Positions 19,766-22,292 of a DNA stretch of 64,000 nucleotides are shown here, piece by piece. The notes under the pieces are model-generated. The model was given only the letters and a program-made list of their open reading frames with translations. It ran no database searches and was not told the origin of the DNA. Each line of letters begins with the position of its first letter. The first letter of the stretch is position 1. The position numbers and the translations under genes were made by a program. Source of the DNA: Escherichia coli (GTDB taxonomy: Bacteria > Pseudomonadota > Gammaproteobacteria > Enterobacterales > Enterobacteriaceae); the NCBI RefSeq assembly GCF_016026235.1, contig NZ_CP065613.1; one strand, given 5' to 3'.

Positions 19766-21100
19766 ATGACTGTAACGACTTTTTCCGAACTTGAACTCGA
19801 CGAAAGCCTGCTGGAAGCCCTCCAGGATAAAGGTTTCACTCGCCCGACCGCCATTCAGGCTGCCGCCATTCCGCCTGCGCTCGATGGCCGTGATGTACTC
19901 GGTTCTGCGCCGACAGGCACCGGTAAAACGGCGGCGTATCTGCTGCCAGCGTTGCAGCACCTGCTCGATTTCCCACGTAAGAAATCCGGTCCGCCGCGTA
20001 TTTTGATCCTCACCCCAACTCGCGAGCTGGCGATGCAGGTGGCCGATCATGCCCGCGAACTGGCGAAACATACGCATCTGGATATCGCCACCATCACCGG
20101 CGGCGTAGCCTATATGAACCACGCGGAAGTATTCAGCGAAAATCAGGACATCGTGGTCGCCACGACCGGACGTCTGCTGCAATACATAAAAGAAGAGAAC
20201 TTCGATTGCCGCGCGGTTGAAACGCTGATCCTCGACGAAGCAGACCGTATGCTGGATATGGGCTTCGCTCAGGATATCGAACATATTGCTGGCGAAACGC
20301 GCTGGCGTAAACAGACCCTGCTCTTTTCGGCAACGCTGGAAGGCGATGCGATTCAGGACTTTGCCGAGCGTCTGCTGGAAGATCCGGTGGAGGTTTCTGC
20401 CAATCCGTCCACCCGTGAGCGCAAAAAAATTCATCAGTGGTATTACCGCGCCGATGACCTGGAACATAAAACCGCATTGCTGGTGCATCTGTTAAAACAG
20501 CCGGAAGCGACCCGCTCAATTGTGTTTGTGCGTAAGCGTGAACGTGTGCATGAGCTGGCAAACTGGCTGCGCGAAGCGGGCATCAACAACTGCTATCTCG
20601 AAGGTGAGATGGTACAAGGCAAGCGTAACGAAGCGATCAAGCGTTTGACCGAAGGTCGCGTAAACGTACTGGTTGCAACCGATGTTGCCGCGCGCGGTAT
20701 CGACATTCCTGACGTCAGCCACGTCTTTAACTTCGATATGCCGCGCAGTGGCGATACTTATTTGCACCGTATCGGACGTACCGCGCGCGCCGGTCGTAAA
20801 GGCACCGCAATTTCGCTGGTGGAAGCCCATGACCATTTGCTGCTGGGCAAGGTTGGCCGTTACATTGAAGAGCCGATTAAAGCTCGCGTTATTGATGAGT
20901 TACGCCCGAAAACGCGTGCGCCAAGCGAGAAGCAGACCGGCAAGCCATCGAAGAAAGTACTGGCAAAACGCGCCGAGAAGAAAAAAGCTAAAGAGAAAGA
21001 GAAACCGCGGGTGAAAAAACGCCATCGCGACACCAAAAATATTGGTAAGCGCCGTAAACCAAGCGGAACGGGCGTGCCACCGCAAACGACAGAAGAGTAA
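19766..21100 (+). CDS. srmB: ATP-dependent RNA helicase SrmB (DEAD-box)
   Basis: 444-aa ORF; GTGKT Walker A, DEAD and SAT motifs, basic C-terminal tail. Confidence 0.96.
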
Positions 21101-21104
21101 TCTC

Positions 21105-21118
21105 AATGCCGGGTTTAA
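21105..21118. repeat. 14-bp direct repeat AATGCCGGGTTTAA, left copy flanking the REP cluster
   Basis: Exact match to 21281..21294. Confidence 0.8.
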
Positions 21119-21153
21119 GCCTGGTATTAAAAGTGCTGGCAAACGCAAAACTG

Positions 21154-21250
21154 CCTGATGCGCTACGCTTATCAGGCCTACGTGGCTCATGCAATATATT
21201 GAATTTGCACGATCTTGTAGGCCGGATAAGGCGTTCACGCCGCATCCGGC
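21154..21250. repeat. REP/BIME element (two inverted REP units)
   Basis: GCCTGATGCGCTACGCTTATCAGGCCTAC and GTAGGCCGGATAAGGCGTTCACGCCGCATCCGGC, canonical enterobacterial REP sequences in opposite orientation, between convergent srmB and yfiE. Confidence 0.85.
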
Positions 21251-21280
21251 ATGAATAAAGCGCACTTTGTCGACAAGTTA

Positions 21281-21294
21281 AATGCCGGGTTTAA
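21281..21294. repeat. 14-bp direct repeat AATGCCGGGTTTAA, right copy
   Basis: Exact match to 21105..21118. Confidence 0.8.
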
Positions 21295-21308
21295 TCCCGA
21301 CATTATTT

Positions 21309-22190
21309 TTATCCAGCCACAAAACTCTCTTCAACACACTGAATAAAAGTGTGCATCGCCGGGCTAACCGCTTTTCCAGCATGGTGTGCGCACATGGCCG
21401 TAATGGTCTGCGACTGTTCGCCAAAAGGCAATTCAATTAATTCTCCGCTCTCAAGCTCTTTTTCCACCGCAAAGCGGGGCAAGTAACTGACACCGATATT
21501 CGCCGCGACACAACGTTTGATACTTTCAATGCTTAACAGCTCAATGGTGTTTTCCACCGTGATCCGCCGCTGACGCAGCGTGCTCTCAAATATCTGCCGG
21601 AAGACACATTGCGGTTCGTTGATAATAAAGCTACAGGCGTTATGTCTTCCCGGCTCAGTAAAATCGACATCTGCAATTTGCGGTGAAGCCACCAGCACCA
21701 GCGATTGTTCACCCAACTCTCGTCGGTTCAGGGCATCATCATTCCCTACGCGATAAAAGACGCCGACATCGGCCTCATCATTCAGTAGCGCATCACGGAT
21801 CACGTAACAGTTCAGCGACTGCAACGATAAACGCACTTTTGGTGCGCGTTGCCGAAAACGCTGCAACACCTGCGGCATTCGGTAAGAGAGCAACGTTTCG
21901 CCCGAAACAACGCGTAGTTCCCCGTCCGGATCTGACTCCTTTTTGGCAGCCTCACGAAGCGTATCCATCACTCGGGTAAGTTCATAAATGTGCGGCAGCA
22001 ACTTTTTTCCTTCGCGGGTAAGGCACATCCGTCGGCCAATTTTCTCAAATAACTGGACTGAAAACTCCTGCTCAATCTGCTGAATATGAAAAGTCACCGT
22101 CGATTGTGTACAGCACAATTTTTGCGAAGCTCGCAAAAAGGAACCCTCTTCCACCACGGTTTTAAGCGTAATAAAACGGCGCAGATCCAT
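21309..22190 (-). CDS. yfiE: LysR-family transcriptional regulator
   Basis: Track ORF 21309..22235; start set at MDLRRFITLKTVVEEGSF (293 aa); N-terminal LysR HTH. Confidence 0.88.
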   Translation of the reverse strand: MDLRRFITLKTVVEEGSFLRASQKLCCTQSTVTFHIQQIEQEFSVQLFEKIGRRMCLTREGKKLLPHIYELTRVMDTLREAAKKESDPDGELRVVSGETLLSYRMPQVLQRFRQRAPKVRLSLQSLNCYVIRDALLNDEADVGVFYRVGNDDALNRRELGEQSLVLVASPQIADVDFTEPGRHNACSFIINEPQCVFRQIFESTLRQRRITVENTIELLSIESIKRCVAANIGVSYLPRFAVEKELESGELIELPFGEQSQTITAMCAHHAGKAVSPAMHTFIQCVEESFVAG

Positions 22191-22292
22191 AACCCCAAAC
22201 CTATCGAAAATATCGAATCTAGAATATAAAAACATTCATTTTTTTAAATGTTCCGTGTCGGGTACTGTCTACCAAAACAGAGGAGATAACAA

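Follow-up and report, generated by a model that had tools for sequence, protein, structure and literature searches.

The 64-kb window of Escherichia coli DNA analyzed here (contig NZ_CP065613.1; coordinates and strands are all in window numbering) contains srmB and yfiE as a convergent pair, with srmB ending at 21100 on the plus strand and yfiE at 21309 on the minus strand. Between the two genes lies a bacterial interspersed mosaic element (BIME) with two inverted repetitive extragenic palindromic (REP) units. A preliminary description of this DNA, which also had the genes as convergent, took the BIME to be flanked by perfect 14-bp direct repeats, as a target duplication or a recombination event might leave them, and proposed that it was acquired as a unit. 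The repeat AATGCCGGGTTTAA is indeed found exactly at 21105-21118 and 21281-21294 on the plus strand, 176 bp from start to start and with 162 nt in between, and both REPs are located inside this interval (TGCCTGATGCGCTACGCTTATCAGGCCTAC at 21152-21181 and GTAGGCCGGATAAGGCGTTCACGCCGCATCCGGC at 21217-21250). With one mismatch permitted, the window has no match besides these two, and in 100 dinucleotide shuffles the mean number of matches was 0.01 and two matches were obtained in none. The window holds no other BIME, and the sole further REP-like match (16312) lies within coding sequence.

The repeat extends beyond the 14 nt, as 21105-21129 and 21281-21305 are identical at 21 of 25 positions, and each 25-mer is a complete stem-loop (H1 and H2 in the following), the left one starting 4 nt past the srmB stop codon. 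The sequence between the 25-bp copies, 21130-21280, is 151 nt long and makes up one complete BIME-1. The features of the region are:

19766..21100, plus strand: srmB coding sequence (ATP-dependent RNA helicase), from the listed open reading frame and the RefSeq annotation of identical or near-identical matches
20954..20967, plus strand: srmB coding stretch AAAGTACTGGCAAA, a 13/14 match to the first 14 nt of BIME-1 (21130-21143)
21105..21129, plus strand: H1, the left hairpin copy, AATGCCGGG-TTTAAG-CCTGGTATT(A), from the sequence and an RNA fold of -15.9 kcal/mol
21130..21151, plus strand: BIME-1 left arm AAAGTGCTGGCAAACGCAAAAC (family consensus GAGACTGATGACAAACGCAAAAC), 22 nt; similar arms are found at unrelated loci, and the conservation among 19 copies starts exactly here
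21152..21181, plus strand: z1-type REP in the iREP orientation, TGCC/TGATGCG...CTAC (TGCCTGATGCG...CTAC), the type being assigned after Ton-Hoang 2012, in which TGCC/TGAT sites belong to z iREPs
21182..21216, no strand assigned: L linker with the conserved core TGCAATATATTGAATTTGCA at 21190-21209, which is invariant or nearly so across copies
21217..21250, plus strand: y-type REP in the GTAG orientation, GTAGGCCGGATAAGGCGTTCACGCCGCATCCGGC (GTAGGCCGGATAAGG...GGC), from the inverted repeats and family comparison
21251..21280, plus strand: BIME-1 right arm ATGAATAAAGCGCACTTTGTCGACAAGTTA (family consensus ATGAACAAAGCGCACTTTGTCAACAATCTGA), 30 nt; the conservation ends exactly here
21281..21305, plus strand: H2, the right hairpin copy, AATGCCGGG-TTTAAT-CCCGACATT(A), RNA fold of -9.3 kcal/mol
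21306..21310, plus strand: T-run TTTTT of the original srmB terminator, joined to H2 alone; the same T-run stands directly 3' of the single hairpin in the empty allele
21309..22235, minus strand: yfiE coding sequence (LysR-family regulator), from the listed open reading frame and annotated matches; its stop codon (complement of 21309-21311) is overlapped by the T-run

For comparison of this site between strains, a 701-bp query across the srmB-yfiE spacer was searched in 5,426 complete E. coli genomes. It matched 5,425 of them, and in 2,524 the match was in one piece (filled allele). An evenly spaced sample of the remainder gave mostly two-piece matches spanning 523-525 bp, against 699-701 bp for the filled alleles, so that the empty alleles are exactly 176 bp shorter, which is the spacing of the repeat. 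In the empty alleles that we aligned (O157:H7, CFT073, STEC388, and MY203L1) the srmB stop codon is followed by TCTC, one perfect palindrome AATGCCGGG-TTTAAG-CCCGGCATT, ATTTTTAT, and yfiE. With 10 pairs, 6 of them G-C, the tail ATTTTTAT, and a fold of -19.2 kcal/mol, this single hairpin has the properties of a Rho-independent terminator, and the terminator scan calls it as one. E. albertii has the same single hairpin and T-run, seven Citrobacter species have a single orthologous hairpin ATGCCGGGC...GCCCGGCATTTTTT adjoining yfiE, and more distant genera, with no yfiE at this position, have a simple terminator. Because E. albertii and Citrobacter carry the single hairpin, the single terminator is taken to be ancestral and the filled state to be the insertion; as judged from these alignments, the empty site is the ancestral state. 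The survey for empty sites that the preliminary description had called for thus turned out in its favour, with single-copy sites in roughly half of E. coli as well as in the two outgroups, and its central claim, acquisition of the BIME as a unit, is borne out, together with a duplication of the target, by the filled and empty alleles and the single copy in the outgroups.

The polymorphism could also have begun as a deletion, with two hairpins and a BIME as the ancestral state and the empty alleles formed by recombination between the direct repeats. Such events must occur, given that each of the two downstream haplotypes, CCAGCCAC and CCCGGCAA (ATCCAGCCAC... and ATCCCGGCAA...), comes with the filled as well as with the empty state. 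Filled alleles are also present in two non-coli Escherichia lineages, and Escherichia sp. E1V33 (see below) shows apparent unequal exchange between hairpin copies. As the origin of the polymorphism we nevertheless find deletion very improbable, since in E. albertii and the seven Citrobacter species a lone hairpin occupies the orthologous position, since the empty E. coli hairpin is a perfect palindrome and not a chimera of the diverged copies of either filled allele, and since at two comparable loci described below the element is present in just 89 of 5,425 genomes (yqjG-yqjF) or in none (metE-ysgA). All filled alleles at srmB have identical junctions and the same unusual left arm.

Having placed the insertion on the filled side, we return to what was duplicated by it. 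In the window each hairpin copy has two substitutions relative to the ancestral 25-mer (H1 ...GCCTGGTATTA, H2 ...TCCCGACATTA); the H1 stem is intact by way of two G-U pairs, and the H2 stem has one C/A mismatch. In a second filled allele, with a left junction found in 190 genomes, it is the other half of the 25-mer in which the two copies have stayed the same (H1 AATTCCGGGTTTAAGCCCGGAATTA vs H2 GGTGCCGGGTTTAAGCCCGGCATTA), and in Escherichia sp. E1V33 (L018, 2840-3215) two tandem 176-bp units of hairpin plus BIME-1 are bounded by three perfect 24-nt hairpin copies. Taken together, the window allele, the second filled allele, and the E1V33 copies show that the original duplication comprised the whole hairpin of about 25 bp, and the perfect 14-bp repeat is the part that was left unchanged in the window lineage. 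The duplication noticed in the preliminary description is real, and its extent is the complete terminator hairpin rather than 14 bp. It had also been held that a repeat belonging to a conserved terminator would speak against an insertion; the repeat literally does belong to one, yet the insertion stands, because the terminator itself is what was duplicated. The tandem units of E1V33 look as if the duplicated terminators had undergone unequal exchange or concerted evolution.

The arrangement is likely to affect the end of the srmB transcript. H1 is followed by AAAAG and not by a T-run, and no terminator-like site was called at H1; H2 has the T-run on a weakened stem (-9.3 kcal/mol), and in the window allele no site passes the terminator scan. 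Because H1 has lost its U-tract, we infer that srmB transcripts should read through H1 and the BIME and end at H2, by which the srmB 3' untranslated region would gain approximately 176 nt with REP stem-loops and an IHF-type site. H1 remains fully paired, which the window allele owes to its two G-U pairs, the K-12-like strains to a compensating G>A, and the second filled allele to a double change, G>T/C>A; the fold energies are from -15.9 to -20.6 kcal/mol. This suggests that the H1 stem may still be under selection at the RNA level, although maintained pairing is not proof thereof. In the empty alleles the convergent srmB and yfiE are merely 32 nt apart and share one hairpin (window 21306-21311; L001 549-582).

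The preliminary description had placed two REPs in a segment of ~162 bp. Both are within the inserted unit, but they are not all of it, the unit being a full 151-bp BIME-1 with arms of 22 and 30 nt outside the REPs. An alignment of 19 copies gave a 153-nt consensus of the order GAGACTGATGACAAACGCAAAAC - z1 REP - linker with TGCAATATATTGAATTTGCA - y REP - ATGAACAAAGCGCACTTTGTCAACAATCTGA, and over these copies the conservation collapses exactly at both junctions. The end of the right arm is an imperfect inverted repeat of the end of the left arm, 12 of 15 positions being complementary between the consensus ends GAGACTGATGACAAA... and ...TTTGTCAACAATCTGA in a by-eye comparison that was not scored by a tool. 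The arms are common to BIME-1 copies at cueO-gcd, entD-fepA, yhaC, nagD-asnB, yqjG-yqjF, and further loci and on many metagenomic E. coli contigs. Among the matches listed, the z1/y REP pair recurs, with no more than 5-6 mismatches, at over 20 additional loci, and a metagenome scan with a 16-nt linker pattern gave at least 37 true BIME-1 copies, most of its matches being unrelated and AT-rich. The most similar of the other copies can be aligned along all 153 nt and is about 93% identical.

Membership in the BIME-1 family (RIP/RIB) is clear from the single inverted z1+y pair, the long L linker, the extragenic location at a 3' end, and the polymorphism of the whole element, and composition, order, size, and linker core are the same as described for the family (PMC3333891). 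Like other members, the element is located at the 3' end of a transcription unit and is a target of IS1397 and IS621. On the minus strand the linker core reads ATTCAAtataTTG, which is an integration host factor (IHF)-type site and follows WATCAAnnnnTTR with one mismatch when read directly; IHF binding to the L linker of BIME-1 is known from the literature (PMC3333891), and the site at srmB is a predicted one. A small RNA (sRNA) family of Rfam, ES036/CssrF (RF02751), matches 21174-21216 on the minus strand with 49.9 bits against a gathering score of 37.6, and the Rfam scan gave REP-derived sRNA families alone (ES036 above and naRNA4 below threshold). It appears as if the ES036 “sRNA family” is the BIME-1 L motif. 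At cueO-gcd (L006 / L107) the y REP and right arm of the BIME-1 are present a second time in direct orientation, making it a locally expanded, “atypical” BIME.

The preliminary description had further advised a search for other BIMEs bounded by direct repeats. The K-12 strain MG1655 has about 75 BIME-1 copies. We sampled approximately 24 distinct BIME-1 loci and compared left with right flank at each, using mismatched flank pairs as the null (mean score 6.0, 99th percentile 10, maximum 11.5). Flanking direct repeats with scores of 9-20 were found at nine of the approximately 24 loci, seven of them scoring at or above the null maximum of 11.5 and the remaining two scoring 10.5 (null P 0.004) and 9 (null P 0.03). 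In 8/9 of these duplicated loci, 22-30 nt separate the end of the left copy from the first REP. The exception is fbaA-mscS, where the distance is 10 nt because the element is without its normal left end. Between the second REP and the start of the right copy there are 29-32 nt at each of the nine loci. These positions coincide with the element ends, and the repeated segment is a different, locus-specific stem-loop each time, with a duplication length of 18-35 bp that tracks the size of the target hairpin. Since the same geometry is seen with different hairpins elsewhere, the duplication belongs to BIME-1 integration and not to the srmB site. A further locus, fruA-psuK, is rearranged in K-12. 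For four of the duplicated loci, filled and empty states could be compared:

yqjG-yqjF: filled in 89/5,425 genomes; empty gap of 178 bp; single terminator AAACGAGGAG-cttc-CTCCTCGTTTTTT (K-12)
ymdF-rutG: filled in roughly 1,700 genomes or fewer (the count of 1,734 at 80% coverage or more includes some two-piece empty matches); empty gap of 174 bp; single terminator CACCGCCGG-taat-CCCGGCGGTTTT
metE-ysgA: filled in 0 genomes and seen only in a 94%-identical metagenome contig; empty gap of 171 bp; single terminator AAACCGGGTGGTAATACCACCCGGTCTTTT
fbaA-mscS: filled in most genomes and empty in Nissle 1917; empty gap of 167 bp; the fbaA terminator

With a minimum stem of 6 pairs, a hairpin finder was positive at 24 of 48 BIME-1 ends, compared to 9 of 48 control windows placed 60 nt further out. 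A hairpin is present at one or both ends at 18 of the 24 loci and directly at the left end in 15 of the 24 copies, and 7 of 9 right-hand hairpins have a T-run behind them, with 5 T or more in 9 nt. From these hairpin and T-run positions it follows that the element inserts between stem and T-run in a fixed orientation, the z1 side pointing to the gene and the y side to the T-run. At the BIME-1 downstream of yhaC (L008, ~380-560), the two arms of one palindrome bracket the element (GCGGGTTT on one side and AAACCCGC on the other) with no duplicated hairpin, an arrangement that looks like insertion into a stem-loop rather than beside one.

Collectively, it is highly probable that a complete BIME-1 was inserted as a unit 3' of the srmB terminator stem, that the whole 25-bp hairpin was duplicated in the event, and that this represents a recurrent geometry of integration. 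BIME-1 has entered as a unit, a complete stem-loop (plus 0-3 T) has been duplicated, and the same has happened at other loci; the mechanism is what we infer from these footprints. At srmB the ancestral spacer contained one intrinsic terminator, AATGCCGGG-TTTAAG-CCCGGCATT followed by ATTTTTAT, and a 151-bp BIME-1 (left arm, z1 REP, L linker, y REP, and right arm) entered between the stem and the T-run to give H1-BIME-H2-TTTTT, after which both hairpin copies drifted, by two substitutions each in the window lineage.

The preliminary description had named a REP-associated tyrosine transposase (RAYT) as one possible source of REP mobility. In its canonical form this means that TnpA-REP, a Y1 HUH enzyme encoded by yafM, moved the REP pair by single-strand “peel and paste” transposition, as proposed for REPINs, and that the direct repeats have no part in the event. 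The accepted substrate, two inverted REPs with GTAG/CTAC feet, is present here, TnpA-REP cleaves C/T sites including TGCC/TGAT (PMC3333891; the slash marks the cleavage), which is found at 21152-21159, and the consensus left arm holds a similar C/TGATG. A fixed orientation relative to the terminator would also suit a strand-specific single-strand mechanism. The duplications are the difficulty: transposition of the IS200/IS605 type leaves no flanking target repeats (PMC3333891; PMC2817692), and we find 18-35-bp duplications at nine loci, which is why canonical RAYT transposition does not fit and why the duplication is not a product of that mechanism (Ton-Hoang 2012, PMC3333891). In addition, the mobilised unit reaches 22 and 30 nt past the REPs, and in the integration model of Ton-Hoang et al. 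the target has to contain a REP or BIME (PMC3333891), while the empty sites are without REP. We therefore consider canonical RAYT transposition improbable as the source of this insertion.

A different history is suggested by the srmB coding stretch AAAGTACTGGCAAA, which matches the start of BIME-1 at an offset of exactly 176 bp, equal to that of the hairpin duplication. In principle the srmB 3' end and terminator (20954-21129) could first have been duplicated in tandem as a 176-bp unit and the interior of the second copy later replaced by BIME-1, as two segments then repeat at the same offset (20954-20967/21130-21143 and 21105-21129/21281-21305). This is most unlikely and was rejected as the main explanation, because the interior has no similarity: the intervening 137 nt gave a local alignment score of 13 against a shuffle mean of 14.4. 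A replacement would also need the length to be kept by chance, the 14-mer sits inside the family-wide BIME-1 left arm, and a second in-register match is absent at the other eight duplicated loci, being seen at srmB alone. The stretch AAAGTACTGGCAAA is ordinary coding sequence and conserved in other genera, and in the second unit of E1V33 its match to the BIME-1 start rises to 14/14. The match is either due to chance or a clue to homology-assisted formation of the junction, and our attempts at a parsimonious history for it were without success.

For insertion of BIME-1 as a unit at the srmB terminator stem, the footprint suggests how the ends might be joined. Each of the two target strands would be connected to the element at a different foot of the hairpin; these feet are 20-30 bp apart in B-DNA and would become adjacent once the hairpin or cruciform is folded or extruded. 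Gap filling would then copy the entire stem-loop, and the duplication length would be set by the structure (18-35 bp) and not by the fixed stagger of an enzyme. Models with hairpin-capped ends, which give inverted loops, are excluded because the loops of both copies share orientation. The right copy would preserve termination and make the insertion nearly neutral, and the flanking repeats would later permit precise loss and tandem amplification, as may have taken place in E1V33. On this basis we tentatively propose, with slightly less than even confidence, that BIME-1 is a terminator-seeking, MITE-like element (MITE, miniature inverted-repeat transposable element) which is joined to both feet of an intrinsic-terminator stem-loop and thereby duplicates the entire hairpin at variable length. 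Transposase-like, structure-directed joining as the underlying mechanism is possible but rather doubtful.

A serious alternative is that the footprint arose by template switching during replication, similar to fork stalling and template switching (FoSTeS) and microhomology-mediated break-induced replication (MMBIR). A nascent strand would leave the terminator hairpin, copy a BIME-1 elsewhere from hairpin to hairpin, return upstream, and copy the hairpin again. The “target duplication” would then be a re-copied segment, and the sharp ends would be inherited because donors are themselves bracketed by fork-stalling hairpins, in line with the hairpin directly at the left end of 15 of 24 copies. 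At fbaA-mscS, where the duplication is about 35 bp, the target sequence CGCCAAAAGCAA and the BIME-1 left arm share a short homology in which the junction is located, and at srmB the sequence before the hairpin, TAATCTCA, resembles the right-end consensus CAATCTGA. The in-register match 176 bp upstream in srmB can be counted on the same side, as can a weak enrichment of similarity between upstream sequence and right end over the nine loci (P about 0.011 vs composition shuffles), although this microhomology signal is weak and post hoc and should be read as a hint. The constancy of the element argues in the other direction, since it starts and ends at the same nucleotides in 8/9 duplicated loci, where switches guided by microhomology should scatter, and since imperfect inverted repeats of 15 nt at the ends (the by-eye 12/15, not tool-scored) are typical of protein-recognised elements. 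Known templated insertions of the FoSTeS/MMBIR type have in common with the present case a copied insert bracketed by re-copied target and occasional microhomology at the junctions, and differ in that BIME-1 ends are nearly constant across loci. On balance we regard template switching as somewhat unlikely.

Several observations weigh against insertion of BIME-1 by joining to the terminator stem, or at least against its simplest version. The duplication is found at about 40% of the loci only, the others having a hairpin on one side or none, and for the loci without duplication one has to assume that one copy decayed or that the element can also insert in another way. At fbaA-mscS the left junction is within target DNA that resembles the element arm, and the normal left end is missing; this junction and the second in-register match at srmB are more readily reconciled with homology-guided template switching than with cleavage at fixed ends. 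A transposase that makes target-site duplications and has matching ends was not found, nor was an enzyme or an intermediate, the ends of IS30 being the only ones compared. All copies are old, the closest pair being about 93% identical, which leaves no recent event to dissect. Because both states occur on both haplotypes, precise loss through the hairpin repeats and/or recombination between strains must have followed a single original insertion, and the state seen in a given strain cannot simply be called “ancestral” or “derived”. A search for a donor copy in the 5,426 E. coli genomes, using both arms and the BIME-1 of yqjG, gave nothing near-identical, with best matches of about 88-93%.

Comparison with known systems places the srmB element close to several of them. 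Within the BIME-1 family the element itself is no different from other members, and what is added here is the sharp-ended arms and the duplicated terminator hairpin at nine loci. With REPINs and their RAYTs it shares an inverted REP doublet with spacer, a non-autonomous nature, and slow, ancient movement, and it differs by the target duplication and by approximately 50 nt of the unit outside the REPs. With bacterial MITEs such as ERIC/IRU and Correia elements it has in common a size of about 150 bp, imperfect terminal inverted repeats, flanking target repeats, and filled and empty sites. The duplications of MITEs are short, of fixed length, and set by the transposase (PMC3184786), whereas BIME-1 duplications measure between 18 and 35 bp, which is the length of the target stem-loop, so that a short target duplication of fixed length is not what we observe. 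Delihas 2011 described REPs as lacking MITE signatures (PMC3184786). IS30 was considered as the parent insertion sequence (IS) on account of a supposed resemblance of the ends and was rejected, as the real IS30A ends show no significant similarity to the BIME-1 arms (P = 0.13-0.76). We know of no parent IS with ends matching BIME-1.

Elements that target stem-loops, such as class C group II introns and the REP dimers in palindromes of Di Nocera 2013, share with BIME-1 an insertion site that is given by a stem-loop beside a T-run and not by a sequence, and a fixed orientation relative to the terminator. Bacterial class C group II introns insert at intrinsic terminators or stem-loops and are not known to duplicate them. 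The REP dimers of other phyla (PMC3733652) lie within the palindrome, and no duplication is mentioned for them.

How REP and BIME elements spread has been an open question since 1984. The BIME-1 element, its family, and its presence or absence from strain to strain are already known, the last of these documented in general terms in PMC1187871, which cites Bachellier 1997. In a 2026 preprint the mechanism of REP/BIME insertion in vivo is given as not established. We found no description of a hairpin-length duplication with sharp, MITE-like ends in the literature searched. Bachellier et al. 1997 (Genetics) may contain one; should that paper already report flanking repeats, the value of the present data is confirmation on a genome scale. 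The recurrent footprint, with fixed element ends, the 3' foot of a terminator stem, fixed orientation, and duplication of the whole hairpin, puts concrete, testable constraints on the spread of REP/BIME elements and is datable. It argues against the canonical single-strand mechanism without duplication and points to structure-directed staggered joining or hairpin-guided template switching. That the right-hand copy keeps the terminator may be why insertions are tolerated and could bias which of them survive, and the flanking repeats explain precise loss or tandem amplification of BIME-1. Terminator-seeking integration would, if true, explain the location of RIP/RIB elements at the 3' ends of transcription units.

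The gene order downstream of srmB varies between genera. In Salmonella, Klebsiella, Enterobacter, Kosakonia, and relatives (L046, L032, L092, L022, and others) grcA is found directly downstream of srmB, and the yfiE-eamB pair is confined to Escherichia and some Citrobacter, one Citrobacter (L078) having an apparently truncated yfiE followed by grcA. The BIME at srmB has itself been the target of insertions by IS1397 and IS621, both known as REP-targeting IS elements (PMC3184786). In E. coli EC23-1020 (L013, ~940-2210; window equivalent ~21178-21180) IS621, of the IS110 family, is inserted inside the z1 REP with the junctions ...CTTATCAGGCCT and ...ACGTGGCTC, and in E. coli WP8-S18-ESBL-07 (L012) and F374 (L014) IS1397 is present in the y REP loop of the second filled allele (window equivalent ~21235) with the junctions ...GGATAAGGCGTTC and GTTCACGCCGC and an apparent GTTC duplication.

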